Below are positions 2,656 to 36,548 of a stretch of 45,526 nucleotides of DNA, piece after piece. How positions within the stretch are numbered: position 1 is the first letter of the stretch; each line of letters starts with the position of its first letter. The position numbers and the translations under genes were made by a program. This DNA comes from Folioceros fuciformis (taxonomy: Eukaryota): assembly GCA_049999805.1 (NCBI GenBank), contig JBNGIO010006183.1, positions 186,414 to 231,939 on the forward strand, written 5' to 3'. The notes beneath the pieces are model-generated. The model searched no databases. It was not told the origin of the DNA and saw only the letters and a program-made list of their open reading frames with translations.

Positions 2656-5077
2656 ATGCAAGCGGCGGGTATCTTCACCTTGCTGCTTGCATTGCAGGCT
2701 GCGCCGTGGGGCGCGTTGGCTGTCTCCTGCCCCGTGTGCGGGCAGGAGGAAGTGCCATACCCGCTCAGCACAGGGGCAGGGTGCGGGCAGCCGCAGTACC
2801 AGCTGCTATGCCTCAACGGGAGCCTCGTCTTCCCGGCCAAGTCCGGGAACTACCGCGTGCTCAGTGTGCAGGGGTCGTCCCGGACCCTGGTGCTGCAGTC
2901 GCCGAACATCTCGGGGCCGGGCTGTTCGTCCCCGGATCTGCTGCAGGGTGGGCTCACCATTAACGCCGCCTCCCCCTTCTCGCTTTCTGCTGCCAACACC
3001 GTCTTCCTGCTCAACTGCTCCCAACAGATGTTTCTGTCCCCGCTCAACTGCTCCTCCACCAGCCTCTGCCATTCCTATCTGTCTCAGGTGAGGTATGGTG
3101 ATGGAATTCGGTCCATGTTCGATTCCCAGCAGCTCCAGATCTGGTGTGGGCTGGAGTGGTGAGTCTGGGGCCAACGCTGCAGTGGGCTGTGACAGGGCCC
3201 GAGCTCGGCCCTGTCGGAAGGTTGCTCCGCATCCACCAGCCTCATCTGCTGCACCTTCGCGACCGGGGGGTCGACCACCTCCAACGGCCTCCCCTTCCAG
3301 GAAGGAGTCTGTTCAGCGTACGTGAGCGTCGTCGACGTCGACAGCACCCGGACCCCTTCCTCGTGGAAGTATGGCATTCAGCTCACCTGGAGCCCCGCGC
3401 CCTTGCCTCCCTGCACCTTGGGGACGCCGGGCCAGTGCGGCCAGCACTCGCGCTGCCTGACCGTCGGGAGCAACTCCAGCAGGGAGCCTGCCTCCTCTGC
3501 TGTGTGTCAGTGTGAACCAGGATATGTATGGACTGATGGTGTGTGCGTTCCCGGTGAGCACACATCACTCAGTCTGGCAGCTCTGCAATGGCGCTACAAT
3601 TTGGAAATCCGCCGCTGCCCATGCATGCTAACCGTTTGCGTGGCTGCTGATCCTGCTTCTGCTCCTGCCAGGCTGCACGAATGGATCCTGCTCCACGCAC
3701 AAGAGGCGTCTCGTCCTTCCCCTTGCAGGTAAGCTCGTTGAGCAACGTGATATGACTCTGGGTCGTGCTGGCCATCGAGCCCATCTGCCTGACCGCTTGT
3801 GTTGCCAGCAGCAGTGTCGCTGGCATGCTCGCTCTTCTTGGCAGTGAGCATAGTGGTGTCTGCCCTCGCGTGCCGCCGGCAGCGGTTTGTCAAGCAGGTG
3901 GAGTCGGCCAGGATAAAAGAGCTGTCGGACCTGCTCAGCCAGGGTAGCATCGGTAGGGCGGCCAAGCTGTACACGGCCAAGGAGATGAAACGGGCCACCA
4001 ACGGCTTCTCGCCGGACTGTGTGCTGGGGGTAGGCGGCTTCGGCGAGGTCTACAAGGGCCGCCTGGACGACGGCACTCTGGTGGCCGTGAAGACGGCCAA
4101 GATCGGCAACATACGAGGCGAGGAGCAGGTGGTGAACGAGGTGCGCATTCTGTCGCAGGTCAATCATCGGAACTTGGTCCGGCTCTTGGGCTGCTGTGTG
4201 GAGATGACACAGCCGCTGCTGGTGTACGAGTTCGTGCCCAACGGCGCACTGTTGGACCACCTCAGGCCCAACAAGGCGAGTGCTCACGGTGGCCAATTTC
4301 GGGACGTCATCATCCTTCCCTGGGGCCTCCGCCTGCGCATCGCGCTGCAGACAGCGGAGGCTCTGGCCTACCTCCACTCTTCAGCCTCCACGCCCATCTA
4401 CCATCGAGACGTTAAGTCCTCCAACATTCTGCTCGACCGGGACCGCAACGCCAAGGTTTCCGATTTCGGCATCTCCCGCCTCGCCTCCCTCGACCTCACT
4501 CACGTCTCCACCTGCGCGCAGGGAACCCTTGGGTATGTGTCATCTCGACTATGCTTGCGTTTGTGGGCACTATGGGCGTGCGATGTGCTGTCATCTACCA
4601 CAAGCCGACATGACAGGGAACCATGCCTTCTGCGTGTTCTGCAGATATCTAGACCCCGAGTACTACAGAAACTATCAGCTGACGGACAAGAGCGATGTCT
4701 ACTCCTTTGGTGTGGTGCTCCTGGAGCTGGTGAGCTCTCAGCAGGTTATCGACTTCTCCAGGGACCAAGATGATGTTAACCTTGCCATGTATGCCCTCCG
4801 CCAGAATGAGGCCGGGAATCTCATGGACATCGTCGACCCCAACCTGCGAGATGCGTCCTCCCCTACGAGGGACGACACAATTTTGACGGTGACGCGGCTG
4901 GCTCTGCGCTGCCTGCAGCAGTCGCGCCTGGACAGGCCTTCCATGAAGGAGGTTGTGGAGGAGCTGCAGCACCTGGAGGATGTGGAATTTTATGGTCCCC
5001 CGGACACCTGGGGGCCTTTGCCGTCCCAAAGCACAACCACCACCGTCCCCGACTCCCCCTACGATTCCGATGGTTGA
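2656..5077 (+). CDS. Wall-associated receptor kinase-like protein (WAKL15/WAKL20-like), 5 exons
   Basis: Signal peptide MQAAGIFTLLLALQAAPWGALA; Cys-rich GUB_WAK-like ectodomain (CG..EVPYPLSTGAGCGQPQYQLLC); EGF-like segment (CQCEPGYVW); TM helix; RD kinase (GVGGFGEVY, VAVK, HRDVKSSN, DFG, GTLGYLDPEY). Inferred exons: 2656-3087, 3196-3553, 3672-3728, 3809-4532, 4645-5077. Confidence 0.92.
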
Positions 5078-5340: not shown

Positions 5341-8300
5341 ATGAGGAACAGCCGTATCGGTGGCCACCTGAGGCTGTTGTACGGTAATTCTAGTGTCAAG
5401 CAGGATTCGAGCAAATATCTTGCACCCTTGGTGAGCGCACCCCACGCGGGCCAGGTGATAGTTGGCATGCCTCGTGTTGGCCGAGCAGCTGTAGAGGCAA
5501 TGTTTTGTTGGCTCACCGAGGATGAAATGCAGGGCAGGCTTTACGGCGAAAGTCCGAGTCTACGAAGTGCTTGTGGGAGCAAAGGTTCAGCAAGGTAGTA
5601 TATTTTTCTGTCAGGCATCTGGAACGAAGTTGGGCGGGACATTGAATCCTTGCACCGTTGCAGATCAACCGGAATACTGCGGAGAAGACAACAGAGGAAG
5701 GCTGGTCGCAGGCGGCATGGGTTGATGGCGAATTGGGGCTGCCCGGGTCTCCTGGGCCATGGAAAGCATCAAACCAGCTTGAGTCAGACAGCGGAGCTGA
5801 TTTAAAGAGTCAGAGGTTCAATCTTCTGACTCCGCCCCTTTCCACTGTTTCGATTCAAACCTCGCAGATTGGGTTGTGCTTGTTCAAGGGTGCTTGTTTC
5901 ACCTGTCCTTCATTCTGCAGAGTGGCGAGGCGTAGAATTGCGGCGGAAGAGATTGAAAACTGGAGCAGGTTGTGTGATAGGCAGCTCAATGAAGCCGTGG
6001 ATGTGCTGGACCGCTTGGTGCTGGGGGGTTCTCCTGTCCCTGACATTGTATACTATCATGCCATCAAGGGATGCATTACAAACAGAGATCTGGTGGCTGG
6101 CAGGCGTGTTCATGCTCTTACTCACAAGAGTGGTGGCGAGTCAAAGACATACGTGGCTAACAATATCATACGGATGTATGCGTCTCACGGAAGGTTGGGG
6201 GAAGCCATTCAGGTGTTCATCAAGTTGCCAGAACCAGACACCTTTTCTTGGTTTTTCATCATTTTGGCCCACGCCGACCATGGGAAGCCTGACGAAGCTC
6301 TAAAACTTTATCACCAGATGCGGCGGTCGACTGTTAAGCCAGACAATCATACTTTTGTGGCAGTCCTTAAGGCATGCTCCAGTCTTGGGGATTTGACATC
6401 CGGCAAGCAGGTCCATGCCGATGTTTTGGGGAGTGTGGTCAAGCCGGATGTGTTTGTTGGCAATAGCTTGATAGACATGTATGCAAAGTGTGGCAAAGTG
6501 GGAGACGCTCGTGAAGTCTATGACAAGATGCCGACAAAGAATGTGGTGACTTGGAATGCGTTGCTTGGAGGCTATGTACAGCAGGGACTTGCTCAAGAAG
6601 CCCTTGCCCTCTTTGCGTGCATGCAAGAGCAGGACATGACTTCAGCCAATCACCTTACGTTTGTGTGTTTGTTGAAAGCTTGTGCTAGCATTGGAGCCCT
6701 TCGAGAAGGGAAAGAGCTCCATGCTCAGATCCGGAAAGGAGGATTTGAAGGTGATGTTATGGTGGGCAGCAGCCTGGTGGACATGTATGCAAAATGTGGG
6801 AGTTTGAGTTTTGCTCGACAGCTGTTTGATAGGCTGTCTTCGAGAAATGTGGTGACCTGGACTGCCATGATTGCAGGATACGCCCAGCATGGATTAAGTC
6901 AGGAAGCCATAGCCCTTTATGCAGAAATGCGGCAGGAGGGCTTGGCTGCACGCAATCTTGCCACATTTGTTTCCCTGCTGAAGGCGTTCACAAACATAAG
7001 AGCTTTGCAACAGGGCAAGGATCTCCATCTCCAAATACAGAAAATAGGGGTGGAGGGCAATATGGTTATCGGGAGTTGCCTGGTAGAAATGTATGCAAGA
7101 TGTGGTAGCCTAGATGATGCCCGCAGGCTGTTCGACAGATTGCCCTCACGAGACACAGTGACTTGGAATTCGATGATCTCTGGGTATGCAGAGCAGGGAC
7201 TTGGCCAAGAAGCTCTTGACCTTTATCAAAGCATGCAACAGGATTGCACGATTACACCCAGTTTAGTTACGTACGTCTGCCTGCTCAAGGCATGTGCCAG
7301 CGTTGGAGCTTTAAAGCTGGGTGAGCAGATCCATTCAAAACTTCAACAAGGTGCCATCGAATCTGACCTGGTTGTTGGCAACTGCCTGGTGGACATGTAC
7401 GGAAAGTGTGGAAGCCTGGAGGATGCTCGCAAAGTGTTTGACAGATTGCCTAAGAAGGACGTGATCACATGGACTGCTCTCTTGAATGCCTATGGGCAGC
7501 ATAATGAAGGCTCAAGGGCCATGCAGTGCTTCGAAGAGATGCAGCAATCAGGGCTCACACCCAATGCTGCCACTTTCACTTGTCTTCTCTGTGCCTGCAG
7601 TCATGAAGGCCTGATAATTGAGGGCCGGCGTTATTTCAAAATGATGGTTGAAGACTACGGCATTGCACCCACCGTTGACCATTACAATTGCATGGTCGAC
7701 CTTCTTGGGCGGTCTGGCCACCTTGATGATGCAGAGAATATGTTGCAAGCCATGCCATTTAAGACGGACGTGGTGGGGTGGAGATCCTTGCTAAATGCGT
7801 GCAAAATGTATGCTGATGTTGAGCGGGCAGAGCGTTGCTTCAAACATCTTGTGAAATTGGAACCCAAAGCAGCAGCTTCTTACGTGCTGCTAGCAAACAT
7901 CTACGCAAACGCAGGCAGGTGGAGGGATGCAGAGCACGTAGAAGGCCTGCGGAAGTCAGTAGGTGCTGGCAAGAAGCCTGCAAGGGCCTGGATTGAGGTG
8001 AACAGTAGAGTCCATGGCTTCGTCGTCGGGGAAGAAAGGGACGACATCGCGTCGAAGCTAAGGAGTGTGAATGAGAGGTTGAAGGAGGAAGGCAGCCACG
8101 TCCCGCAAACGGAGTTGGTGCTGAAGCCGTTGTCTGACAGAGAGAAAGAAGATTCTCTGTGTGGACACGCGGAAAAGCTAGCATTGGCTTACGGCCTTCT
8201 GAACACTCCAGACGGTACACCTCTGCTTGTCACCAAAAATCTTCGCATGTGCGACGACTGCCACACTGGGACGAAGACCATGTCAAGGACCGAACAACGA

Positions 8301-8375
8301 GAGATTATAGTTCGTGATGCACACCGTGTTCACCGGTTTGTGAACGGGTTTTGTTCCTGTGGGGATGGGCTTTAA
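5341..8375 (+). CDS. PLS-class PPR protein with E1-E2 and variant DYW:KP deaminase-like domain (candidate U-to-C RNA editing factor)
   Basis: ORF 5658-8375 has 17 P/L/S motifs, E1, E2, then KKPARAWIEV...CGHAEKLA...LRMCDDCH...HRFVNGFCSCGDGL*. The first in-frame ATG (6174) lies inside the PPR array, so the start is on upstream exon(s). Best model: 5341-5430, 5538-5594, 5664-(5815), (5921)-8375. The 5' end is uncertain. Confidence 0.9.
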
Positions 8376-8872
8376 TGAGTGAAGGAATCGTACGTAGGGT
8401 ACTCTTAGGAATCGACATAGCGGCAGGGAGTATGGGCTGTTTTTTCAAGTGTGCAACTGTGTGGTGCAGATGGTCGTCATATTTTGGTGCTATTTAATTG
8501 TCTAAATGGACGGCTGTTGCAGGTTCTTGTTGCACGACGCTGATGGTTCTTTTCAGCGTTCTTCAAGTGACAGTAGCAGGTGTGGGGAGTTAATCAGTGT
8601 GGCTGTTAAAGGTCGGAATTGATGTTGTCGGGTGGAATAAAGATATAAGTATCATGTTGGGGTGCCCTTTGCCTAAGTTGTTAAGACATCAGTTATGACT
8701 CAGTGTGGGGAAGAGAAGATACAGTTCTAGAAGATGAGCATTTGCGCACTGAATTTTTTTGGAGAAATAGACAAACACGGACTTCGAGCTATTTGTACAC
8801 GATATTGAACTGCATGGATTTGAGAGAGCGCAGTGAGCAAGACCGGCAAGGGCAGCCGCGATCTACAGTGGT

Positions 8873-9755
8873 CTAGACTCCGGGAGTGTAGTTGGTGGCG
8901 TACGCCCAGGCATTGTTCACGGTTGGGTTGTCCAAGTGGTCGGCCAGGTTCTCGATGGGGCCCTTGCCGGTGACGATGGCCTGGACGTAGAAGCCGAACA
9001 TGGAAAACATGGCGAGTCTACCATTCTTGAGCTCCTTCACCTTCAATTCGGCGAAGGTGTCGGGGTCGTCGGCCAGGCCGAGGGGATCGAAGGAGCCGCC
9101 GGGGTAGAGGGGATCGGACACCTCGCCCAGAGGTCCTCCGGCCACGCGGTACGCCTCAACAGCGCCCATCAGAATCACCTGGGTAGCCCAGATAGCCAAG
9201 ATGCTCTGCGCGTGCACCAGGCTCGGGTTGCCCAGGTAGTCCAGACCTCCGTCGGAAAAGATCTGGGACCCGGCCTTGAACCACACGCACTCTCCGAAGG
9301 GCACCCCGTTCTTGGCCAGAAGCTCGGGGGTGACGCACCCGAGTGTGCCGAGCATGGCCCAGCGGGCGTGGATCACCTCAAGCTCCCTGTTCCTGGCGAA
9401 GGTCTCGGGGTCGGCGGACAACCCGGCAGTGTCCCAGCCGTAGTCGCCGGGGAACTCTCCCTTCAGGTACGAGGGCGTCTCACCAGAAAACGGGCCCAGC
9501 CACAGGGGACGGTCGGGGCCATACCTGCATCATACCGTACCACGTCAGGCACCGGATACAAGCACCTTCGCGATTGGACACCTGCGCAACGCAATGGGCT
9601 GCTACCCACCAAATGCTAGAGCTGCTGGCGCTCGACTTCCGCATCTGCAGCTTGGACTCGCTAGAGCCGGCAGCGCTAAGGATCTCGCTGCGCTGCCTGA
9701 AGACGCTTTGCCCGGCCAGGGCGGCGCTGGAGGCACATGCTGTGGCGGTGGCCAT
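8873..9755 (-). CDS. Lhcb: Major light-harvesting chlorophyll a/b-binding protein of LHCII (Lhcb1/2/Lhcbm type), 2 exons
   Basis: Transit peptide [16 protein letters not shown]..., then [63 protein letters not shown]. Exons 9755-9610 and 9524-8873, with the intron inside the Trp codon. Confidence 0.97.
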
Positions 9756-10460: not shown

Positions 10461-13400
10461 TCAACGTAATTCCAAAGCGTAGACATGGTCGTCTCTGCAA
10501 CCTACAAATAGTCGCCCTCCCATCATCACTGGAGACGAGAAAACTTCTCCCGGAAGCCGCAGTCTAGCTACCTCATGAGCTTTCATGACATTGCTGGATG
10601 CGCTCCCTGTTTGATTGGATTCCGAAGAAAGCCCTGTGCTGACGTCTAGCTTGTCAGGTCTTCTAGACTCAGGAGTAGGCATCGCCTCCTGCGAGCCCTC
10701 TGTAATGATTTGCAGCAGCGAGACAATGCCTCCGGTAGTGCATACGCAAATTAGCCTGTCAGTAGGCAACTGTCAAGGAAGTTGCGACCGATGCAGGGAT
10801 CACGCCTAGACAGTACGTGCTTAATGGCCCACAGAGCTACAACATAATTCACCTGGAGGTTTTGTTGGCACCTTTGGACAACAGCTGAAGGCTGTCGTCC
10901 ACACAGCAGGAGGCTGTTACGGGATCGTCGACGCTATGCTCCCACAGAACGTGTCCGGTACCCTGCAGACCAACAAGCAGAAATACAAGATAGTCAAATG
11001 GGGTCAGCACGCCCTCGTCAAAGAGAGCAAAAGGCGAAGGAAACTGCAGCCTTGGTATGGTGTCGCCTTTACTTAACTGGCCTGATGGCATACAAGAATC
11101 CGGTCCTACAGCACACCAGCAACTGCGGGACCACCACTCAAGCGCTCTTCAGAAGACAGATCCTGCAGAAGGAAACAAAAGAGACGGTATACAAACACTG
11201 TTTTATCTCACCTGGTCAGGCAGACAAGCTGATAAGCAGGCACCACCAAACACCGGCCCCTTCACGGTCACCTGTGTCCACTGACGATACTCATCAGGTC
11301 CTTCAGAGGAGCACCTCCTCCCGACAACTCTGAGACATGGAGAACATGTTTGCATGCTGGGACAACGCACCTTCCATGCTATCTCTCCCTCTGGAGTAAA
11401 GGCCGTCACAAATCCACTCACTAACACGCAGATAACTGCACACAGAAGGAAAAGGTTCAAAAGAGAGCTTTTCCTACTGATTCTACCCTTCACAATGCGT
11501 AGCACCGAGAGACAGGGAAGATAACACACGAAAATGTGACGCTGTGTCCACGACAGGTGACCCAAAGACTGCAGCACCACATGTGTTTGTCCACAGCAGC
11601 GATGGAGATGGCTGAACAGCGTGCATTGAGGGTCAGCTGTCGGCAAAATTAACTGAAGCAAGTGCAAACAACAAGATATTCGGACACCCTTTTTAACTGC
11701 AACCATACTTCCGTTAGGATGGCGCTGATAATCCCGCTGGTGGAGGCAACGTATAGCCGGCACATAACCTACAGTGCTACGCTTAGCTCTCAAAGACAAT
11801 GAATGACAATAGCATGCCAAGCTACAGAGGGAGCAGATTGAGCAGAAGAAGATTAATTGCCGCACCAGATCGCAAGCAGGAGCACCGAAAACGCTACCCC
11901 CACACGTATGTTGCCAGACACAGCACTGTTGTACGCTATCAAGGGCATATATATTATGATCATGTGATCCACACCTGCAGTAAGCAGCGTATAGTTGAGA
12001 GGAAGCAATGCAAAGGAGAAAAACAAAGCATTAAAAGGAAATGAGAATGTACCATATCAAGCCAGTGCAAGGATCCAGAGTTGGCTGGCATTTCACCTGT
12101 CAAACCATTCAACACCCATTGAAGCATGCAAAAATTTAGGAACAACGTATACAATACGGAGGTCTTCAAGAAGAACTTACTTGAGGTCATTCCTACCTCG
12201 CCCCCTGTCTGAAATGTCCAAACTATCCTGCCGTCCCAGTAGTCAAAGAAGTAGATGAGCCCGTCATAGCACCCAACAATCACCTGGAGAACAGAAGGAT
12301 CCTTGCCATAGTTGAGGGCAAAGATATCAATCATAACACACGTTAGAGATGCAATTACCTGGTTGAAATCAAAACTGACAGCCGCTGATGACTCTATCCG
12401 CCCTCCTACTTCTGTCTCCCACAGCAGCTCACCACTGCATAAGGCATAAGGTATTTAAAAGTTACATGACATCTTGCATATACTACAAAAAGCTGTCTTT
12501 AATAGTCACAAAACATCTTGCATACACAACAAAAAGCTTTCTTGTAACCTGATCGACTCACCTTGCAGCATCGATGCAAACAAAGCGTTTTGCATGTGAG
12601 CCAATGAACAACCTCCATTCACCTGCAGTATGCACTAAAAGAGGCGATCCGTCTACACAAGAATGGAGTGAGACTCTCCAGCATGGCTGCAGCTGTCTTG
12701 AATCAAGCCCGTGTACCTCAAGAATTGGGAGTACACGAGACCCCTGTGAAAGTTCTCGGACACAGATACTATTACATCTAGTGAGCGCAAGTGGCCCTGG
12801 AAAATCAAGATGGAAGGGCCACAATAGCTCCCCCCTTCCTTTCACAGTCCCCACAAAAGATGTGTCGCCACTCATTGGAGCTTCTTGTTCTGTGCGAGCA
12901 CCTGGAGGTCCTACAGCATCCACACCCCGCAACAATTCAATCTGAGTAGAGACTCTACAAATGAGGCTACGTTCCAGTGAGCCTGTCAACCTTGATGATT
13001 CCAGAGCAGCTGTCTTGGTCCAAGTAGTTGACTCATGCATTGCATGGATAGCTGAGCAAAGCTCTGTGGCTGTGGGGTATGAATATAGGAGTAGCATGTC
13101 AATGCTCAAAATGTGTGCTACATGAGCGGCTGATACTGATGTTCCGCCAAGTGCAAAGAAATCAGCAGAAGGAGAGACGCGTTCCAGGTTCAGAACATGT
13201 GCAAAGACCTGGAAGAAGCAAAAATAAGCTGGAATTAGGAACAAATCACATGGATATAATTTGCAACAGTTGTTGGCTGCTAAAGCAGAAATATGCCTGT
13301 ACGATTTTGTTGACGGTATCACAATAATGATGTGTATCCAGCGCTGCCCCGTAAACATTAGTCTGTTTTGTAGAAAGAGTAGCGTAATCTACCTTCCCGG

Positions 13401-15611
13401 AACTGGTCACTGGCATAGCTCTCAGTACCTCTATTTGCTGAGGAACCATGAAAGATGGTAGCCTCTCCGCTAACCAGTTTCTTAGATCGTCAGGGCGCTC
13501 TTCATAATCGAGAACAACAAATGCTACAAGATGCAGTCCCCCATTATGCCAAGTTCGAGTCAAAACTGCAGCCTGTTGTACAGCAGCATGTGTTTGGAGA
13601 AGTGCTTCTACTTCTTCAAGCTGTATGCGCTGTCCATGAACCTTGACTAGCCGATCCTTTCTTCCAAGCAACAAGAAGCTGCCATCGGCCAGTAGAGTCA
13701 CAAGATCCCCTGTTTTGAACAAAGCACATTGCTCAGCAGAACCCTGAGACTGTCGTGGCCAAGCATCCAAAAACTTTCTGTTGGTTTCCTGTGGGTCATT
13801 CAGATAGCCTACAGCAACGCCACATCCAGCCACCCACAACTCTCCTTCTCCTGATGTCACAACGGAGTCATTTTCTGAAACAACAAATGCCTGTAGTCCA
13901 GATATTGGCCTGCCAATGGGAACTGTAGACGTCTTCAATTGAGTGGCGTGAAGTAAGCTGACCTCAAAGTAAGTACAGTCCCCAGACACCTGAAGGACAA
14001 AACCACGACAGACACAATCAGCAAGAGAGGTTAGCATTCAAATCACATATTACATCAAGTTGGAATTATTTATGGTGTCATGAAGAGCAGAGTCGATCGC
14101 ACCTCTGTACTACCATAAAGGTTCAGAATCGTTGTTGTCACCAAGAGCTGGTCAAGAGCTTGCCATAACCAGGTTTGCAATTGTTCCCCACTGAGCACTA
14201 GGATGCGTAAACTCAAAGCCGTTGCTTCGTTTTGCAGTCGAGGCAAAAGTGCATGCAGCAGGGATGGAACAGCGATCAGCCTCGTGATGTGATAATCCTA
14301 CAACAAACCAGAAACCGAATGAGCGGTCAAAGACACAACCACTGCCACATTTGCAGCAAATGCTTACGTAAGCCCAGAGTTGACTGTTGAACCTTCAATG
14401 TATCAAAAAGGATGAGAGGATTTCTTGATATCTGATTTCTTGGCGGAACAACCAAAAGACTAGCAGTAAGCAGCGGGCCCAATGCTTCGGTCAAGTGATC
14501 CACAAAGCCAATAGCAGTCTTAAAGCATCCCACGTCCCCGTCCAAATGTGGATAATTATCTTCCATCCATCTCAACCGATTCATCAGACCTGCAACGCCG
14601 TAAGGACATGAGGTACACGCTCAAAATGAAGGAACTCTGAATCCTTCACAAAGCACTAAAGCAGCAGGCTGCTTCTTGAATTGACACCTGTCTCTGTGCC
14701 ACATACTCCTCTTGGGGTACCTGTTGACCCTGATGTGTACAAAACGTACAAATATGAAGCCTTGCGTGAACTGCCTAGCCTTAATGGACAAGTCTTTGCC
14801 TGCAAGCCTTTCACGAATCCCTCCTGCACCGAAAGCACTGGGCAAGCAAACGTGCTGGCAATCTTTGTCACATCCATTCCATCGCTTCGGGGGGACCACA
14901 ACAAATGGTGGCAACAAATGACGAGACATGGCTTGCAGCTAAGTGCCACAGCTTCAAGTCTTCTTAGAGGCCAGGACAAGTCCAGTGGAACGAAGGCCGC
15001 CCCAGCTTTCACAACAGACAGAAGACAAACCAAATACTCCACCGAATTAACCATCATAAGTCCAATCTTCCTCTCGCAATCTCCACTTTCAGAAGTGGCA
15101 CGGTCTGCGACTAGTGCAATTCCAGGGAATTCGAGCTGAGCATCACCTTCCCACCCTGTCCCTGCCCGTCCAGAGGAATTTGCTTACGTGCCAATGCAGT
15201 CCAAGCCCACGAACGTGAAAATAGCGTTGCACCTAAACATGCGTCCTGCCTCAGCTGGCAATCAAGACCAAACGTACCCTCGAGTACAGCAGCAGCGTCA
15301 CAGCTTCTGCCCACAACATGCTCCAGAAGTACTGCCAACAAGTCAACAGCCAGAAGAAGTTCTCCATAGGTGTGCCCCACATCTGAGCTCCTGCAATTCA
15401 CTCCTTCCGAAATTGCCAATGAACACTCCAATCCATCATCGATGGCTGAAGCTTCAGCCTTGGAACCAGCGGATGACTGCCGAGAGCCGTCGGTGGAAGA
15501 AGTGGAGCGAGCGGATACATGCAGCACAGCAATATTCTCCGAACAGCGGGAAGCCACAGACTGGAATGCATCCAGCAAAGACCCTTGCTTAGAACAGCCA
15601 GCAGTCGGCAT
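10461..15611 (-). CDS. AAE19: Acyl-activating enzyme 19 / AASDH (ACSF4)-like: adenylation domain + phosphopantetheine carrier + PQQ-type beta-propeller, multi-exon
   Basis: A-domain motifs [65 protein letters not shown]. Carrier motif DFFALGGTS. Propeller repeats [34 protein letters not shown]...[10 protein letters not shown]. Probable ATG at 15611, stop at 10461. Confidence 0.9.
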
Positions 15612-15759
15612 TGAATCAATCCCCAATTCGCGTCCAGCTACTCCTTAGCAAGCTCAAGTTCATAACTGAGCAGGCTTCATAACATTAACATCTCAACTTG
15701 AAAGAGTATCGCATAGTGTAAGGGAAGAAATTTAAACAAGCAGGCTCTGGCAGCATGGA

Positions 15760-18675
15760 ATGCTGCAATCGCTGCCATGGAGTGCAGCTGCTGCCATGCA
15801 GGAACGGTTTGCAGCTTGGATGTGTTTCGGTGCATGCAAAAGTGGGGCAGTCATCCCGACTTCAGGCACAAGCGGTGGAACCAGGCCCTGTGGCTACATA
15901 TTGCTGGGCTGGATTCCCGAGATGCTCGGCTGCAGGTTGCAACCAGGGACATTCCTGGTTCTGTACTTCCCCTCAACGCGTCTCCAAGGTAGATGGGCTT
16001 CGTGTTGTCAGAACTTTTTTTCTGTCATTGTGCTGCGCTGCATTGTGACGTGTCGGGACGTTTGCAATTGCAGAGAGTCAGGCACGTCTCTGGACGCGCG
16101 TGAATTGGAGACATTATTTTGGAAGGGGTGGCTGCGCGAGGCACTACTCTGCTTGGAACAGCAGGGAGTAGTGCCCTCGGATCGGGTGTACAAGAATTTA
16201 CTGCAGGCCTGTGGCAAACGGAAGGCAGTTGTAGAGGCCAAGCTGGTACATGCTCATTTGACAAAGCATGGGCTAGAGTCCAACAGGGTGTTGGGCGACC
16301 TTCTAGTCACCACGCTGGTCACCTGTGGGATGTTTGAAGATGGACTTGAGGTCTTCAAGAAGTTCCACTATCGGACTGTTTATTCTTGGACAGCTATCAT
16401 TTCAGGGTACAGCAATGCTGGACAGTGTCGCCAAGCTCTGGCATGCTATGAGGAGATGCTACTGTCCGGTGTGGAGCCTGACAAATATACGTTTGTTGCC
16501 TTGCTTAAAGCTTGCAGCAGGTTGGAGGAGCTGGAAAAGGGCCAGCGGATTCATGCTGATATCGTGAGACGTGGGCTGGAAAATGATGTCTTCATCGGGA
16601 ACACGCTAGTTAGCATGTATGCGAAGTGTGGGAGCATCCTGATCGCACAGCAGGTGTTTGATTGTTTGTCGCAACGCAATGTGGTGTCGTGGAGTGTCAT
16701 GATCTCAGCGTATGCTAAGTATGGGCAAGGGGAGCAAGCTTTAAAGGTTTATGCGCAAATGCAACACGAAGGAATCAAAGCTGATGCTCGGACCTTTGTC
16801 AGCGTTTTCCAAGCATGCGGCATGATTGCAGAAAGTGAGGAAAGTGTGTGCGTGGATGAGGAGCACTTCAAGGTGGGGTTATTGCGACAGGGTAAGGAAG
16901 CACATGCTGCAGCAGCAGGGAGAGGGTGTGACGCGGACATCTTTGTTGGCAACAGTCTGGTCTCCATGTATGCAAAGTGTGGGAGCATCGACAATGCATA
17001 CCATGTGTTTGATAGCTTGTCTCTGCGAGATGTGGTGTCATGGAATGCACTACTTGCAGCGCATGCCCAGCAGGGTCAGGCAGAAACAGCGGTGCACATC
17101 TATGGCCGGATGGTGGAAGAAGGTATCAAGCCAACTGGACGGACTTTTGCCAGTGCTCTACAGTCGTGCAGCACCCTTGCAGAAAGGGAGGACGCGATGT
17201 ACCTGGATGGGGGGTATGTGAAGGTGGAGTCTCTGCAGAAGGGGAAGGAGATTCATGCGGATGCCACCGGAAGTGGTTGTGAATTGGACGCCATTGTTGG
17301 TAACGCTTTGGTGACTATGTATGCAAAATGTGGGAGCATCGTGGATGCGCAGCAAATATTCGACGGGTTGAATAAACATGATGTTGTGACATGGACAGCA
17401 ATTATCGCAGCTTATGTACAGCAGGATCAAGGGGACAAGGCTCTAGAGTGCTTTTGGCGGATGCAAGAGAAACGCATCAGGCCAAACTCCCGGACATTCG
17501 TTAGTGCACTCCAAGCTTGTTGTGTGATGGCAGAAGTGGAGGACTTCGCACTCGTGGATGGTCAGAACGTGAAAGATGACTCACTCCGCAGAGGAAGGGA
17601 AATACATGCTGAAGCTGCGGGCATGGGTTTGGAATCGGATGTGTTTGTGAGTAGCACTTTGGTTACTATGTACGCAAAGTGCGGGAGCATTAGGGACGCC
17701 GAACAGGTGTTCGACAGATTGGCTGATCGTGATGTGGTTTCATGGACTTCCATGATTGCAGCGTATGCTCAGCAGGATCAAGGGGACAAGGCTCTGCAGC
17801 TGTTTGCCCGCATGTCAGGAGAAGGGGTGATTGGTCATGAGGCGACATTTCTCTCGGTCCTGAAGGCGTGCAGCAGTACAGGAGCTTTAGATGTTTGTCT
17901 TGACATTCATAGAATTATAGTAGAATGTGGATTCCAGTCTAACGTGCCTGTAGCAAACAGTCTTATTTATACATTGGGCAAATGTGGAAGCATGAGTCAT
18001 GCTCAACAAACTTTCGACTCACTGCCCGAGCCTGATGTGGTATCATGGACGGCACTTATGGCTGGGTATGCTCGACTGGGAGATGGCCATTCGAGTGTGC
18101 AGTGCTTTGAGAGCATGTGCATGTCAGGTGTGAATCCTAATAAAGTCACCTTTCTGGCACTTCTCTCCGCATGCAGTCATGCTGGCATGGTGGAGCAAGG
18201 CTTAGAGTACTTTGGAAGCATGAAAAGGAAATTCGGCATCTGTCCGGAGCTGGAGCATTATGCTAGTGTAATTGATCTTGTTGGTCGCGCAGGACTCCTC
18301 ACAAAGGCAGAAGAGCTGGTTTTACAAATGCCAATGGAGCCTGATTCATCAATTTGGTTGAGCTTGTTGGGTGCTTGTCGGAAACACGGTGACGTGGAGC
18401 GGGCAAGGCGGGCTTTCCATGGTGCTGTCGGTTTAGATTCAACAAAATCTGCACCATATGTCCTCATGTCAAGTACTTATGCTGATGCCGGTATGTGGCA
18501 TAATGCACAAGAGGTAGATCAATTAAGGCAGAGTGCAAATGCATGGAAGAGGGAGCCAGGCCAAAGCTGGATAGAACATGATGGAGAGGTTCACACGTTT
18601 TTAGTCGGAGACTGCAGACACGGATCCACAGCAGATCTTAACAGACTGTTGCAACAACTGAGTGCAGTCCTGTGA
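15760..18675 (+). CDS. PLS-class PPR protein, E+ type (PG box, no complete DYW), with three 51-aa long-L motifs
   Basis: 20 P/L/S motifs, E1, E2, then WKREPGQSWIEHDGEVHTFLVGD and a stop before any HxE/CxxC. Probable short 5' intron starting at 15989; the true ATG is 15755, 15760 or 15777. Confidence 0.92.
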   Translation: MLQSLPWSAAAAMQERFAAWMCFGACKSGAVIPTSGTSGGTRPCGYILLGWIPEMLGCRLQPGTFLVLYFPSTRLQGRWASCCQNFFSVIVLRCIVTCRDVCNCRESGTSLDARELETLFWKGWLREALLCLEQQGVVPSDRVYKNLLQACGKRKAVVEAKLVHAHLTKHGLESNRVLGDLLVTTLVTCGMFEDGLEVFKKFHYRTVYSWTAIISGYSNAGQCRQALACYEEMLLSGVEPDKYTFVALLKACSRLEELEKGQRIHADIVRRGLENDVFIGNTLVSMYAKCGSILIAQQVFDCLSQRNVVSWSVMISAYAKYGQGEQALKVYAQMQHEGIKADARTFVSVFQACGMIAESEESVCVDEEHFKVGLLRQGKEAHAAAAGRGCDADIFVGNSLVSMYAKCGSIDNAYHVFDSLSLRDVVSWNALLAAHAQQGQAETAVHIYGRMVEEGIKPTGRTFASALQSCSTLAEREDAMYLDGGYVKVESLQKGKEIHADATGSGCELDAIVGNALVTMYAKCGSIVDAQQIFDGLNKHDVVTWTAIIAAYVQQDQGDKALECFWRMQEKRIRPNSRTFVSALQACCVMAEVEDFALVDGQNVKDDSLRRGREIHAEAAGMGLESDVFVSSTLVTMYAKCGSIRDAEQVFDRLADRDVVSWTSMIAAYAQQDQGDKALQLFARMSGEGVIGHEATFLSVLKACSSTGALDVCLDIHRIIVECGFQSNVPVANSLIYTLGKCGSMSHAQQTFDSLPEPDVVSWTALMAGYARLGDGHSSVQCFESMCMSGVNPNKVTFLALLSACSHAGMVEQGLEYFGSMKRKFGICPELEHYASVIDLVGRAGLLTKAEELVLQMPMEPDSSIWLSLLGACRKHGDVERARRAFHGAVGLDSTKSAPYVLMSSTYADAGMWHNAQEVDQLRQSANAWKREPGQSWIEHDGEVHTFLVGDCRHGSTADLNRLLQQLSAVL

Positions 18676-22008: not shown

Positions 22009-25722
<3,714 letters not shown>

Positions 25723-27009: not shown

Positions 27010-27068
27010 TCATCTGGCACTTGAGTTGGATAGCCTGGCTGAAATCCATGTGAGCTCAAGAATTGGCG

Positions 27069-27851
27069 ATGAGGGGTGGTATGCAACATGAGTACGGCGG
27101 GGTGCGCCACACATTCCCTAACGTCACAGTGTGTCATAGGTTCCGGCCATCCTGCTTGCTGCTCCTATCCATCTTTGCACTGCTTGCTTCCTCTCTATGC
27201 GCTCCTGCTTCCGGCGCTACTTGTGTTACTCGCTCTGGTTCTTCTCTTGATGAACACCCTGTATCTCTTTCGAAGACCAATCATACTACGGTGAGTTTGT
27301 CTAAGACTGCCCCGCCTTCGAATCCCTGCAAGGCCGGGCCCCCACTTCCTGACCCTTCCAACCAGATGTCTCCTCCCCGTCCACCTGTCCCTCTCCCTGC
27401 TCCTGCTGCTGCTCCTACTCATCCACCTCGTCTTGGTGATCCTGTCGCCCGTTTGTCTCCTGTTCATACCCCTACTCTCATTCCCCCTGCTGCTCCTGCC
27501 CCAGGTACTCCCAGCCGATATCCTGTGGAACCCCCTCTTCCTCTTGCCCCTGTTCCGCCAGCAAATACTCCCGGACCAGAGTCTGAGGAACCCCCTCCTC
27601 GTCCTGCCCCTGTTCCGCCAGCAGGTACTCCCGGACCAGAGCCTGAGGAAACCCCTGCTCCGTTTCCAAGTCTACCGGAAAGGACAGCAGGCATGACGGG
27701 TGGAGCCAAAGCGGGTATAGCTTTGGCTTCCTTGGCGGGACTGCTGCAGGTGGTGGTGGTCATTTTTCTCATGGCTAGACGAAGGCAACTGATCAAGGGC
27801 ATCAATCAGCCTGCGGACTGGGGTCAGGGGAGGGATTCACGGATTCTGTAG
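27069..27851 (+). CDS. Proline-rich (HRGP/AGP-like) type I single-pass membrane protein, intronless, function unknown
   Basis: Hydrophobic signal LLLLSIFALLASSLCA; P/A/T/S-rich ectodomain with a 60-bp duplication (27528-27647); GMTGGAKAGIALASLAGLLQVVVVIFLMA TM followed by RRR and a short tail; TATA upstream. Confidence 0.75.
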   Translation: MRGGMQHEYGGVRHTFPNVTVCHRFRPSCLLLLSIFALLASSLCAPASGATCVTRSGSSLDEHPVSLSKTNHTTVSLSKTAPPSNPCKAGPPLPDPSNQMSPPRPPVPLPAPAAAPTHPPRLGDPVARLSPVHTPTLIPPAAPAPGTPSRYPVEPPLPLAPVPPANTPGPESEEPPPRPAPVPPAGTPGPEPEETPAPFPSLPERTAGMTGGAKAGIALASLAGLLQVVVVIFLMARRRQLIKGINQPADWGQGRDSRIL

Positions 27852-29807: not shown

Positions 29808-31074
29808 ATGGCGGACGAACCTTGCTCTTCGGATGACGACAAGGACTATGATCCCACGCAGGACATGACCGCCAAGCAAGGTCCCCTCCTTTCTCTCCTC
29901 TCCTCCCCTCTCTGCTTCTCCTCGCATCTGTCCTTTCTGTCCATTTTACCGAAATGCGGAGCGGCGGTTGCTCAGCCACGCGTTGCGCCCGCTTGTGTTG
30001 CGTCCGGATTTTTATTTTTTTTGCCTTACTGCTTGTTTGCGCATCTGGCTGATTTTTCACTCTGCTGGTTGCCTGGGATGAATCGCAGCGACGAAGGCCA
30101 AAATTAATGCTATCTGGGAGGAGATGAATGCGAAGAACACTGCGATGGCAGCGCAAGAGTCCGCGCGGGCGTCCTCGTTGGCAGCTGGAGGTGAGGCTTG
30201 GTATTGTCAGTACAGTTTAAGCAAGCACACATTGTTACCTCTTTGCTATCCGAGATTTCGCAGCGTGGGGATGTGGGAAGGATTGCTTTGCTGCAGTCGT
30301 GTGATCGGGCTCGCTGCAGGCCGGTGTGGGAGAAATTCGGGTCGCATCAATTTTGGAGCCATTGTTGGATGCCAATTACAGAGCCTGTTAGTGTACTTAC
30401 TGTTGTGATGTGGACTGTGGCAGCAAACAAGGCCAAAATCTCCGCTATTTGGGAGCAGATGAATGCCAGGAGCAATTCCATAGTTGTTCAGAAATTGACA
30501 AAGCCAGCAGCATCCGGAGCTGATGGACGAAGCAAAGTGAGCGAGCAAATTGCTGCTGCAGCCAAAGCAGCAGCTGCATTAGTGAAGACCGAGGTGCGCA
30601 CTCTCTCTATTTTGGGCGGTCTATCCTGGGAAATGGAAATTGGCTGTTGCCGAACGCGTGATCAGCATATGTCATGATTGTGCTCTTCTTGTCATGTCTT
30701 GGCAGCCCGAGGCACTTGCGGCGGAGCAGGCGAACGTGTTGAAATCCTCGGATCTGCAATCAAAAGCAGCTGAAGCTGTAGAACGGAAGGCTAAAATGGT
30801 GGCATCGTCATCAAGAGGCTTGGATGCGCTACTTCAGCAGATATCGAAAAAGCCTAAGATCAGTGTTCTAGATAAGTCCAGACAGGACTGGGGCCAATTT
30901 AAGGAGGAGAAGGGACTGGAGGACGAGTTGGAGGCTTACAAAAAAAGCGGAGACAAGTATTTAGACAAGGTTGCTTTCCTACAGCGGGCTGATGTCAGAG
31001 AGTACGAGAAAGAGCGGGAAGTTAGGTTAGCCATGCAGGCAAAGAGGCGGAATGAAGCATCATACAGGGAATGA
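29808..31074 (+). CDS. CFDP1: Craniofacial development protein 1 / BCNT / SWC5 (SWR1 complex subunit), 4 exons
   Basis: Acidic N-terminus SSDDDKDYDP and BCNT C-terminal domain GLDALLQQISKKPKISVLDKSRQDWGQFKEEKGLEDELEAYKKSGDKYLDKVAFLQRADVREYEKER. Exons 29808-29880, 30089-30190, 30424-30593, 30706-31074. Confidence 0.9.
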
Positions 31075-31554
31075 CATGTACATAACATAGTCACGTAGTA
31101 CGTCGTGTAGGGTTTTAGAAATGGGAGGAATCGCGGGCATCCAGTGGAGTCTTCTCTTGATGAGGATCACACCGGCGGAGTGCAGCAGGTTGCAGCTGGC
31201 CAGGCTGATACGAGCACCGTGCCTCTCCTGCCAAGACGCGTTTGCCTCACCTGGCCTGACATGTATTTTACTGACCAGGGATTTTGCCCTAAAGCAACTG
31301 ACACGAACCTCAGAAATAACCCGGTTGTTTTCATGCCCCCGAGTTAACCTAGGCAGATGTGTACTTTGGGCAGCAGCCTACACTTCTCACCGTACTGCAT
31401 CTGTAATCCTTCAGCTGACAGACTGTGGCGTTCAGTGTACCATACTGCCAATCGCCAAGGCGACAGGGAGGAAAGCAAGGACATAAATAACTGCTGTGGC
31501 TTATATATAGTACAAGCGGTTCCAAAAGCCTATTGTACAAATGACAACAAGGCA

Positions 31555-34500
31555 TCACTTCTGCTTTTGCCTATTGCTGAGAACTAGGCAGAAGAGAGCC
31601 ACAATGCGTGCAACCGCACCGTAAACAAAAAGAATACTCAGGCACAGGGGCAAGTGGTCCAGCCGATACCGCCCCTTGAACAGCACCTGACAGCGAGTAA
31701 TTAACCACACCCCCGAGTACCTGTCCCGAATTCGGCCACCCGATGTAAGCAACGGCAAGCGAGACAGGCGCAGGAAACGGAGGGGAAGAAATTTGTGGAA
31801 GTCAGGAGGGTGTGTGGTGTACCTTTCAGCATTCACAAGGACGTAGGCCTCCAGCGCCCAACGTGCAAAGCTACCGTAGGCTATGTAGCGGATGTACCCT
31901 GTCGTTTTGGTGGCAAGAAGTGTCCCAAGAATGGACACAAACACGGACCACTGCAAAGAACCAAGCACAGGATGAAGCACACCAGAGCAGACCACAAACC
32001 AGACGCGGCAGGCGCAGTGAAGTGAACAGGGATACCGAGGGGGTAGCCTCATCACTCACCAGCTGCGCGGGCCCAGGCTGGAGAAGAATTGCAAAAATGT
32101 AGCCAATTCCAGTCACACAATATACTAGAGCTAGAGTCACAACAAAGTTCCACAAGAATGTCGACCGCGGATCGTTGAAAAAGTAAAACAAGGCAAGATA
32201 AACAAGAGGCTTGATGACGACGTTGAAGAGGTCGACAGCATCCTTGGCGAGGAAGAAGGCGTATCTGTTGATTCCAGATGCACTTTCTCGCCAGTACTGA
32301 AGCTTGTCGTTGGAGAAGGTTCTCAATGCTGCAATCATGCACAGAAGAGCTGCAAACATGAAATGCACCAGTTAGCTGCTACAGAGATGAGAGCCTCCGG
32401 TTTCGAGTCCCCCCTCAACGTACAATGAACTGGCTCTCAGCCACACCACAGCACTTACCTACGGCTATGACGGTGTAAGTATACCCCGTCGAACCCAGAT
32501 TCGTATCCTTCACATCAGACAGAAATCCTAGGCTGGCTCCAGCCAAAAGCAAGATAACGTAGTCCTGCGCCTGGAGTCGCGCTTCTCGAAATCTTTGTAA
32601 TGCAACGCTGGAAACAGATTTGACATAACTAGAATTCAGACGACACACCACGACGTTCAGACCGGGCAGAAACACAACACAGTGACTTACCGCCTTAAAA
32701 TCACATCAAACTGGTTGAAAAAGCCCGGAGTCTTCCGTCCCGAATGATCCTCTACCTTGGTGAATGCACTCTTGATATTATCCAGATTCACAGCCACGTA
32801 CACCCTAAGCTCTTGGTAAAGCTCATAAGTAAAGCTTGTAGTTTTGTCCACTATTCCCGGAGATCCCTGTGACTTGCTCCGCTTGGAAGGAGTAGCATCA
32901 GGTGCCAGACCTTGCAAGTCCTCTGGGATTCGGTACCCATTATGGGTCATCCACATCACTGGAAGAATAGTTTGGTCGAAATTTGGATCTCCTATTCAGC
33001 ATCAACATCCAAGTTCGGTTGCTTAACTGTGACTGTGAAGGAAGCCACACACGGAATGGTGCACACCAGCAATTATTAAGGATGGTGCACCACGCCCTCA
33101 CTTGCAGTGCTGCGTAACACCACCGTACTTACCATCGGGCTTCACAACTCCCGCAAGAATGTCAAGGAAATGGTCAGGCGGGTTTATTCGTTCAGGTACA
33201 ACGACTCCAAGATCGGCGAAATACTCCTCGACATCCACAACTGGACCCAAGTACACGGTCCGTCCACCTTTCGCCAAGAACATCACGTCGTCGAACATCC
33301 TAAACAGCCCATAGCTGCAAGATGCAGTATGACATGTGTAAGCAAAAAAGTAATCCTCAGTGGCAGCAGAAGCTGGTAAGAAGGTGGTGCCTCAACCGAA
33401 ATTGGCTACCTTGGTTGATGAACAACAACAGCGACGTTCACACCAACCAACGCTTCTCGCCTTAGAGCTTGGAGCACCAACCGTGAGGATGTACTGTCCA
33501 GGCCTGAGGTAGGTTCATCGAGGATCAGCAAGGACGGTTCCATGACCATCTCAAGGCCCACATTTACCCTCTTCCGTTGGCCACCAGAAATACCACGCTT
33601 CTCGACAGTTCCCACGCGAGAGTCCCTGATATTGCCCAAACCTAGTGCATTTATGATTCTTTCAACCACAAAAACTTTCTCCCGCTTTGGCATGTCGACG
33701 GGGAGTCTGCAGAAAATGACACGCAGGTGAGTATCCCACTCAACATGCACAGGACTCCGGGGCTGTCACGAAAACGTACAACAACTATGGTCTTCCACTA
33801 AGATCACACAATGCGTCGTCATACCTATACTTGGCACTGAACCACAGATTCTCTTCCACAGTCAAGCTCCCATGGACGATATCATCTTGAGGTACGAAGC
33901 CAATGATCCTTCTATATCCCTGAATTGATCCTGGTTGACCGTTGATCCTAACGTGCCCCGTGGTGTAGCTGTGGTTCGCTTTTCCAGCTATTGCATTAAG
34001 AAAAACGGTCTTCCCAGCACCAGATGGACCCATCACCGCTGTTATACGGCCAGGAGACAACTTCCCTGTGACATTAGACAGAATTTTTTTTCCACTGCCT
34101 TTGAGGATCAGGCAAAGATCCTCAAACACAAGCTCGATGGGGGGCCGTCGACTTCCTTGAAGCATCTCTGCATACTCTTTCTGTGCCAACAGATCCCCCA
34201 TAGTAAACTTTTCACGTTCGATCTGCCCATAAGCATACTTGAAGATTTGACTGCGACTTTGATTCAAATTAGGACTGTTATTCACGGCTCGTTCGGCCTG
34301 ACGGTCTTCGACATAGCCATCCGTAGGGATGTTGACTGGTGGGGCTTCAATACTGGGATACAGATCCTCATAGTCTGTCTGAAACTCAACAGAGGAGAAA
34401 TCAGTGACACTTTGCCCAAGAGATTCATCCTCATTGATTGTTGCAGAAGCCAGCATGCTGAGTTCGCGCGATTTGGCTGCTGCTGATGCAGATTTGTAAC

Positions 34501-36548
34501 TTCTCGCATCCGAATCAGGACTGTCAGAGTACTTTGACGGTTTGCTACGCCTGGAGAAAGTTCGACTGAGCTGACCAGAGAAGTTCTTCGCTTGGCGCTT
34601 TGCTAAATTCTTCCATCTCTCGCCAGCTGATATATACTGCCTGGCTTGATACGCAGCTGTTTCACGAGCTTTGGCTCTGCGCCTTTCCCGGAGATGCATG
34701 ACATGATCGGAGCAATTATAAACCAGGAGGAGCAACAGAGCGAGCACGATCTGCAAAGCAATTTCAGAATTGAGATGAAACAGTGAACCCGTCCCTCAGG
34801 AGGCAAAACCACCCAGCACGAGAAAAGATGATAAGAGTGCTTACAATCAATAACAGTCCATATCCATGGAGATTTTCACTACTCTGCTTTGCATCACACT
34901 TGGTCAATCGTGAGCACGCTGCAAAGAAGCACCAAAGACGGCAGCAGAGAGTGAAATGCGGTGGACAGGTGATCACCCAAGCTTTACAAACAGCAAGTGA
35001 GCCAGATCCAAGGTCGAAGGGCAAATAACTTCTTACCACTCTGGCGAGTGGACCCCTGTCTGCAGTAGTGCCTGTGTAGGTTGCGTAAAGAAGGACAGCA
35101 CAGCTCAGGATCCAACAAATACTTGCGACAACAGGTCATCGATGAAAGCCAACACAGGACTGAAGAAACTTTGAAGTGATGACTTGCTCACCCTTCCTCA
35201 CATTCGAGCTTTTCCGTGGTGGCAGGGCAATAATGTCCACCCTCACAAAAGATGCCAGGAGTAAAATTAACTCCACTCCACATGTCTGCACCACCACAGG
35301 ACTGGTTGCCATGCGCAGGAGACATCTGGTATCCATACCTGGACAGGACCAACCCCAAATGCCATGAGGAAGCTGCCAAAGGGGCACCTTCCTGCCCGTC
35401 CAACACGAAATGGTTCGGTACTTACGGTAAGCATAAACCACCAGGCTCCCAAAAGGATGCCAAGGGGCAATAAGCGCCAAGAGGACAAGCTACAAAGCAG
35501 GACGTTGCAAGCTGTCAGGGCCCTTGAGGCAGAGCCAGGCATGTCACAAATGCAAAAAGCAGCGCAGCTCACTTACGGATCATGCACGTGAGCCCCTTGG
35601 GACAGAAGAAGCCAGCACAACATGGCTGCGGGTCGAACAGCCGCAGAGGGAGCGTGTTGGGAGCGGCCTGCGGCGAGGGGGCTAGGTCGTTGTTAGGGTC
35701 AGACGAGGAGGCTGCCCATCCAGGCTCGCAGGCCAGGGGCCACGAGAAGTGATTACAGTTGGAATTGAAGGGAGGGAATGCCGGGTTGGGAATGGCCGCC
35801 AAGTAGGCTTGCAGCTCCGACTCCCCGCACAACCTAGTGTCGATGTCGTCTGCATAAGGACCACCAGTGCAAGGATTCAGCACACAAGGGAAGGCGACGA
35901 GAGCGCACAGGAGCAGGAGGCGGGAAGGAAGAGCTTGCCGTACTGTATTCGCTGTAGCAGTCCTCCAGGAAGCCCACGTCGTGCGAGAAGTCGAACGCAT
36001 TGTTCCTGTCCCGAATGCTGCAGTCACACCCAAACATTCGGCCCGGAGCCTGGGAATGTGAGGCCTGTCCGAGCCCTACCCAAGAAGCGAATCATGGAGA
36101 CCAGGTAACGCAATGGCCGTCACCTGTCGATGATGCAGAAGCTGTACTGTTCCGCTACCTTCCGAGTGAGAGTATCCGCACGCACTTTTAGATGGTCCAC
36201 CAGCGCAGCCGGAGGGGGGGCCGGGAGAACTGGCGGCGGATACCCCAGCTCGAACCCCGGTGGGAGCTGCAGTCCCGGGGGGACCGAATAGCCCGCTATC
36301 GGAGGAGCACGCAGCGTCGGGATGCCATTCACGGGAGCCGGCGGCGAGGAGAATCTAAAACCCTGGGAGGCGGCGGATCTGACGAGCAGGAAGAGGTGAA
36401 GCAGCAACAACACGCTAGCTCTGCTGGGCCACAATCTCCAATCCCGCCTTGGCTCCAGCCGGATCTCCTGCTGCATACCTCGAGCTGCCCAATTCCGGAT
36501 CCTACTTCCCGTCACTCTGCGGCAGCTTGCGTCAGGATCCTCACCCAT
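31555..36548 (-). CDS. ABCG half transporter, ABCG24/ABCG28/WBC30-like, with Cys-rich N-terminal ectodomain, multi-exon
   Basis: Signal/Pro-rich N-terminus; Cys-rich domain ([46 protein letters not shown]); Walker [19 protein letters not shown]; signature ISGGQRKRV; Walker [20 protein letters not shown]2-type TMD ([24 protein letters not shown]). The start is 36548 or 36476. Confidence 0.93.

Follow-up and report, generated by a model that had tools for sequence, protein, structure and literature searches.

The closest described relatives of the editing domain considered here are the DYW:KP domains, which are recognized by a KP box replacing the PG box, Ala within the HxE motif, a missing xHP segment and Met at position 92 (PMC9478123, PMC11845758), and of which hornworts carry both the DRH and the GRP variants (PMC9478123). 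The designs KP1-7 are compared by their text descriptions in papers, not by sequences; figure alignments might alter the residue comparisons. The designers KP2, KP3 (both GRP) and KP6 edit U-to-C, with the glutamate of HAE and the cysteines being required (PMC9478123). The GRP-type designs KP2 and KP3 perform U-to-C editing only, and KP6, a fern designer, is active in both directions (PMC9478123, PMC11845758, PMC11713852). KP1, a design derived mainly from DRH proteins, was inactive in E. coli and human cells despite proteinase K, three other designs being active (PMC9478123). In KP6, U-to-C editing needs Lys88 and the lysine of HAEK (PMC11845758, PMC11713852). According to the current model, Lys88 attacks C4 of the uridine, release is proposed to occur via hydrolysis, and the enzymes may be single-use.

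Single changes flip the editing direction of KP6 (PMC11845758); in the same study, G64 and V113 push this enzyme toward C-to-U, C6 and T17 push it toward U-to-C, and E47, A116, V119 and any residue other than His at position 133 favour U-to-C. As of PMC11845758 (2025), no natural KP protein had a demonstrated activity; KP arrays have been reported to match U-to-C sites (PMC10226603). The tails of KP domains are more diverse than those of PG domains (PMC11845758), and PG enzymes suffer when the terminal Trp is lost. A conserved Lys is bonded by the terminal Asp, and GRP proteins carry Glu in place of this Lys (PMC9478123).

Domain composition and gene structure

The window analysed in this study is a stretch of 45,526 nucleotides from Folioceros fuciformis, and the features of the gene are collected in Table 1. 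Translation of positions 7971-8375 reads KKPARAWIEV ... GEERDD ... HAEK ... CDDCH ... CSCGDGL-stop and closes an open frame that runs for 909 codons (5646-8375). Pfam recognizes a DYW_deaminase domain (E 4.8e-35) with the E motif and PPR repeats N-terminal of it. In the alignment to the DYW:PG chain 9kfx, the PG box lies opposite PARAW (PGCSW aligned with PARAW) and a four-residue gap falls around SHP, so the motifs listed in the preliminary description (KKPARAW, absence of SHP, HAEK, CDDCH and the CSCGDGL end) are all present.

With the K of KP (7974) as position 1, the DYW:KP domain has 133 residues and its key residues are H65, A66, E67, K68, K88, M92, C93, C96, K101, D131 and L133. This numbering agrees with the KP6 positions named in PMC11845758, where C6, T17, E47, G64, K88, V113, A116, V119 and H133 correspond to majority or commonest states in our set of Cys6 paralogues. 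The zinc site HxE(x)nCxxC is present (H65-A-E67 and C93-x-x-C96), as are the four distinguishing features of DYW:KP domains named above, and the PG box, HSE, SHP and DYW end of the DYW:PG type are absent. A66, K68, K88 and M92 are shared with nearly all KP paralogues.

Table 1. Features of the PPR gene within the window
Feature	Positions	Strand	Basis
Predicted first coding exon; basic, Ser/Leu-rich start like an organelle targeting peptide	5341..5430	+	Inferred: first ATG giving a stop-free product with GT-AG introns; X2 contig end at 5431
Predicted second coding exon	5538..5594	+	Inferred: GT-AG borders and frame; 56 non-collinear letters before 5662 in X2 contig 12, fitting by length
Third coding exon	5664..5815	+	X2 contig 12 covering 5662-5813, resuming at 5919
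GT-AG intron, 105 bases, spliced out	5816..5920	+	Skipped in X2 contig 12; gap-free in DNA run X1
Last coding exon: entire PPR array, E1, E2 and DYW:KP domain	5921..8375	+	Frame, translation, Pfam
17 PLS repeats: L1-S1, four P1-L1-S1 triplets, P2-L2-S2	6042..7769	+	Motif parse, hand-set lengths
E1 and E2 motifs, 34 residues each	7770..7973	+	Pfam E_motif (E 9e-18); motif parse
DYW:KP domain, DRH (D-x-x) type, Trp6 and Gly99	7974..8375	+	Translation, Pfam, alignment, trees
Catalytic core H65-A66-E67-K68, K88, M92, C93-x-x-C96	8166..8261	+	Sequence; roles from PMC9478123, PMC11845758, PMC11713852
D-G-L-stop end, four residues past the last CxC as in 131/131 sampled KP domains (mostly chosen by length-fixing patterns)	8364..8375	+	

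Contigs of two sequencing runs from different studies, X1 (DNA, possibly the source of the assembly itself) and X2, cover positions 7975-8800 without any differing letter, and the DGL end is therefore genuine. No run is recorded as RNA, and X2 is taken as such because it skips the GT-AG intron. An assembly slip at the tail is ruled out by the identity of the genomic and spliced RNA contigs there. Splice signals, the reading frame and contig ends predict two more introns (5431-5537 and 5595-5663). If both are removed, the product would have 917 residues, the first 50 of which contain 11 Arg or Lys, 8 Ser, 7 Leu and 3 Asp or Glu, a composition count only that depends on the predicted exons 1 and 2. 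Two other organisms yielded gap-free orthologue pieces from their runs, with about 92% identity (differences at 70 of 926 letters in one and 64 of 746 in the other), and the alignment of the X6 piece ends at 8362, just ahead of the tail; two protein searches found no orthologue protein, the best identities being 71% and 76%. A pseudogene is ruled out, as the frame has no stop or frameshift and the RNA is spliced. The gene is nuclear and encodes a complete PLS-E1-E2-DYW:KP editing factor, as shown by its intact frame, splicing, domain order, catalytic residues and family placement.

On the 3' side, a chlorophyll a/b-binding gene on the opposite strand (8873-9529) converges on the end of the PPR gene, and a high-depth X2 contig runs from the DYW domain toward it. 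On the 5' side, a single X5 contig (5036-5815) holds exon 3 of the PPR orthologue together with the final part of the region of the upstream kinase gene, reflecting either overlapping transcripts or read-through, which contigs cannot separate. The neighbours assigned by Pfam in sampled frames are, in order, a protein kinase (3793-5077), an AMP-binding enzyme (11200-15640), arginyl-tRNA synthetase (22300-25300), a BCNT protein (30586-31074), an ABC transporter (31500-36100), a FAD-binding protein (37757-38725) and an EIN3 factor (43630-45525); the frames 40466-40981 and 27054-27848 gave no Pfam family match. A second long PLS-type PPR frame on the plus strand (15736-18675) contains an E motif and ends shortly past a PG-box-like segment with no DYW match. 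This frame is of the E+ type and likely encodes a C-to-U specificity factor that uses the DYW domain of another protein.

Census of paralogues and assignment of the domain type

A search of the same genome identified at least 150 scored matches (68-100% identity) among 590 candidates. The patterns used for the domain end also accept TGG where the stop stands. G-R-P-stop was matched 188 times (0 in its control), D-x-x-stop 171 times (5 in its control), D-R-H-stop 55 times (0 in its control) and D-Y-W-stop nine times, eight of these nine being parsed as PG domains; a D-G-x pattern with 22 matches versus 12 in the control was used solely for fetching loci. The 167 loci fetched yielded 139 distinct domains, classified as 8 PG, 28 GRP-type and 103 D-type. 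This sample is non-random, being composed of the 50 best query matches, 30 GRP-pattern, 9 DYW-pattern and 20 D-G-x places, the cox1 locus, and 57 more places out of the first 100 of the 171 D-x-x matches.

Several peculiar family members were observed in this census. One domain end (G000:C4972:2542-2571, plus strand) has an in-frame stop in its tail (D-stop-P-stop) and is probably a damaged GRP-type copy, and three other GRP-type domains terminate in DRP. Three of the eight DYW-ending domains (L061, L062 and L063) have a long charged insert replacing the normal N-terminal part and are possible trans-acting DYW donors for E+ proteins. At several places in the genome (L006, L014 and L022), KP genes lie tail-to-tail less than 1.5 kb apart.

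Examination of 13 GRP-diagnostic columns revealed the GRP state in only one position of the query (A26, common to most GRP domains). The absent states include E101, G116-Y117, K130-G131 and P133, and the DRH-type features K101, A116-H117 and G130-D131 are kept. In particular, Lys101 occurs in 103/103 D-type domains, and Glu occupies this position in 20 of the 28 GRP-type domains. When profiles were built with the query and the last three columns left out, its scores were 249.8 bits for the Trp6 set, 247.0 for the DRH-ending set, 237.0 for Cys6, 230.5 for GRP and 144.8 for PG. Similarly, mean identity is 73-74% to the D-type sets, 68.5% to the 28 GRP-type domains and 39% to the 8 PG paralogues, and the nearest rows are Trp6 D-type paralogues.

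The quick phylogenetic tree of 149 rows, from which three PG domains with long inserts and one truncated row were left out, places the query inside the KP clade (SH-aLRT 99) and outside the GRP clade (98, 28 rows). A more careful tree of 58 rows with the last four columns removed, in which the backbone is open and the bootstrap not settled, again supports the KP clade (100/99) and a GRP clade (100/99, 14 rows) that excludes the query. Judged by these residues, profiles and trees, the query is a DRH-type KP domain and not a GRP member, and its exact place among the D-type domains is not fixed by the tree. The assignment to DYW:KP made earlier is borne out by the KP features and by clade support of 99-100, and the proposed profile and phylogenetic comparison groups the domain with KP, apart from PG. 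Membership in DYW:WW, a type with a WW-type N-terminal box, is unlikely given the KP features and the clade.

Variability of the C-terminal tail

The literal D-R-H end is absent from the query, and it is present in only 37 of the 103 sampled D-type domains and 55 of the 171 D-x-x pattern matches; the domain is filed as DRH-type (D-x-x) because DRH names the commonest tail rather than a fixed one. The 103 D-type domains display 53 different tails, of which 43 are singletons, and DGL is one of these, occurring once like the 42 others. Gly132 is found in nine of them, a number enriched by the D-G-x search, and Leu133 in five. When the 133 positions of D-type domains are ranked by variability, position 132 is the 9th and position 133 the 4th, with D131 nearly fixed and the catalytic columns near-invariant. 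The stop lies four residues past the last CxC in 131/131 KP domains, most of which, except the 50 similarity matches, were chosen by patterns that fix this length. The terminus described previously as unusual is thus real but not meaningfully unusual; the DGL tail is tolerated ordinary drift, in which the Asp131-Lys101 pairing and the chain length are kept.

The part from P2 to the DYW domain was modelled with a mean pLDDT of 91 (49 for the last residue), and the model matches the PPR-DYW chain of 9kfx at TM 0.88. In a published PPR-DYW structure, the counterparts of G132 and L133 point to the L2-S2 and E1 repeats at the PPR-DYW interface; the Tyr equivalent to G132 tolerates replacement with little loss, and Arg13 of S2 is contacted by the terminal carboxyl. 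This arginine is kept in the DGL protein. The fixed tail length and free side chains may be explained by the terminal carboxyl meeting Arg13 of S2 while the side chains tolerate change. The suggestion that DGL could serve as a handle on the amination chemistry does not hold, since the last two residues sit at this interface and the chemical model rests on Lys88.

Position 6 of the domain is occupied by Trp, which is the PG state in the alignment with 9kfx, in 38 of the 103 D-type domains, including the query. Gly99 accompanies it in 32/38 domains, compared with 4/40 of the Cys6 domains. DRH ends are fewer with Trp6 (9/38) than with Cys6 (24/40), with a Fisher p of 0.0014 that overstates the case, as paralogues are not independent. 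Trp6 domains are enriched in the sample by likeness to the query. A Trp6 clade is unsupported, with five changes on the tree, and the Trp6 domains represent a grade. It is quite unlikely that this Trp6/Gly99 D-type grade with its freed last two residues forms a class with a function of its own, such as natural editors that work C-to-U or in both directions and stand between DYW:PG and the GRP enzymes with their strict U-to-C activity; if it did, natural W6 versus C6 pairs would point to the residues setting the editing direction.

PPR array and search for targets

The array follows the PLS-class order (P1L1S1)n-P2L2S2-E1-E2-DYW, and canonical code pairs were found in 10 of its 11 P and S repeats. 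Repeat positions 5 and last, read with the code table of PMC10482289, give U-n-n-Y-Y-n-A-A-n-G-C-n-U-A-n-U for positions -19 to -4.

In a search for organellar targets, no organelle genome was found in the assembly: rbcL had no match, and cox1 was represented only by a short nuclear copy of the mitochondrial gene (L110 1501-1683; G000:C1915:2375-2557, minus strand) with 59 codons, in which unedited codons are kept. Compared with the consensus of 80 homologues, 12 of 55 codons differ; seven of them are mended by one C-to-U and two by one U-to-C change, the latter including TAT where His is invariant in 80/80 homologues. This copy fits a lineage in which editing runs in both directions, though its codons may have mutated after insertion. 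A metagenome scan with the copy detected 80 loci with identity of at most 82%, none usable as the F. fuciformis mitochondrion.

Proposed function and rival explanations

Both lysines needed for U-to-C editing in KP6, Lys88 and that of HAEK, are present in the query. K88 also occurs in 8/8 PG domains, and this residue therefore does not set the direction. The remaining KP6 positions show a mixture of states, with E47, A116, V119 and non-His 133 on the U-to-C side, G64 and V113 on the C-to-U side, and C6 and T17 absent. With a probability of about 0.7, we interpret the protein as a factor of the DRH (D-x-x) type for site-specific U-to-C editing in an organelle, its tail being neutral; this activity appears most likely because both needed lysines are present and 10/11 P and S repeats are readable. 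The earlier suggestion of a candidate U-to-C enzyme is upheld. The protein would enter an organelle, with the mitochondrion slightly favoured; the TAT codon for an invariant His in the cox1 copy is what one would expect if the mitochondria require U-to-C editing. The repeats would bind near the predicted sequence, and the zinc domain, four bases further on, would convert uridine to cytidine, with Lys88 attacking C4 and the link resolved later, as in the published model. Asp131 would keep its partner Lys101 and the chain length would stay fixed, the last two side chains merely packing against the PPR array.

It is rather unlikely that the domain is silent or partner-dependent, or belongs to a spare paralogue with a site that no longer needs editing, so that the tail reflects relaxed selection. 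The inactivity of the DRH-based KP1, the damage to PG enzymes upon loss of the terminal Trp and the very large size of the family agree with such a state, and the X6 orthologue alignment that stops at 8362, before the tail, is a weak hint of a differing tail. It is opposed by the catalytic residues, the D131-K101 pair, the open frame, spliced RNA, canonical code and conserved orthologues, as well as by near-invariant catalytic columns alongside variable tails in the D-type paralogues.

Also unlikely is C-to-U or two-way editing by the same protein as a member of the Trp6 loose-tailed D-type grade, possibly intermediate between PG and U-to-C enzymes. W6 is the PG state and goes with G99 and fewer DRH ends, single changes flip the direction of KP6, and only nine DYW-stop pattern matches, eight parsed as PG, exist in the genome. 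Nevertheless, E47, A116, V119 and non-His 133 are U-to-C-favouring states in the published KP6 work, and the C-to-U-side states G64 and V113 also occur in 27/28 and 26/28 GRP-type domains, respectively, although GRP designs are described as U-to-C only. C-to-U editing can also come from E+ proteins that use a borrowed DYW domain, and the gene at 15736-18675 is of this kind. W6 is not one clade, and its p value overstates the case.

Finally, it is extremely improbable that the domain is a GRP-like subtype whose distinct terminus carries functional meaning: a sister relationship of the query with the GRP clade is not rejected by an AU test (p 0.42) and A26 is common to most GRP domains, but 12 of 13 diagnostic states are absent, identity and profile scores are lower for GRP than for D-type domains, the nearest relatives are Trp6 D-type, the query falls outside the GRP clade in two trees, and DGL is one of many singleton tails. 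The preliminary interpretation therefore stands as to DYW:KP and the U-to-C candidacy, and fails as to GRP-likeness, a special tail and a handle on the chemistry.

Comparison with known systems

The DGL protein is a real, intact, previously undescribed member within a known family. Taken alone, this gene matters little, being one of several hundred KP genes in the genome with a tail that represents drift. It can serve as a test case, being a natural D-type protein that is intact and has a clean PPR code, the DRH-based design having failed. Only about one tail in three among the D-type domains is covered by the name DRH. Conservation concerns chain length and Asp131, and this speaks against a classification of KP domains by their last three letters.

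The DRH variant represented by the designer KP1 (PMC9478123) shares with the query the KP box, the 133 residues without xHP, HAE, M92, K88, D131 with K101, A116-H117 and the P2-L2-S2-E1-E2 frame. The query departs from it by the DGL end and by Trp6 and Gly99, positions at which many DRH paralogues carry Cys and Ser. The GRP variant (KP2 and KP3, as described in the text) has in common the KP box, HAE, K88 and the missing xHP, and mean identity to the 28 GRP-type paralogues is 68.5%. The query lacks 12/13 GRP states, such as E101 and a terminal G-R-P, and is excluded from the GRP clade. KP6, by its published description, shares K68, K88 and a hydrophobic last residue (Leu in the query, Phe in KP6); the query, in contrast, is a natural protein rather than a consensus and already has E47, G64, V113, A116 and V119, the states tested as KP6 mutations. 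The DYW:PG proteins (OTP86, 7o4e; DYW1, 7w86; synthetic PPR-DYW, 9kfx) have the same HxE-CxxC site, K88, W6 and fold (TM 0.88 to 9kfx for the P2-DYW model), and the interface arginines of the query match R568, R591 and R595. Unlike them, the query has KP for PG, Ala for Ser in HxE, no SHP, V119 for the interface Phe and a terminus other than Tyr-Trp.
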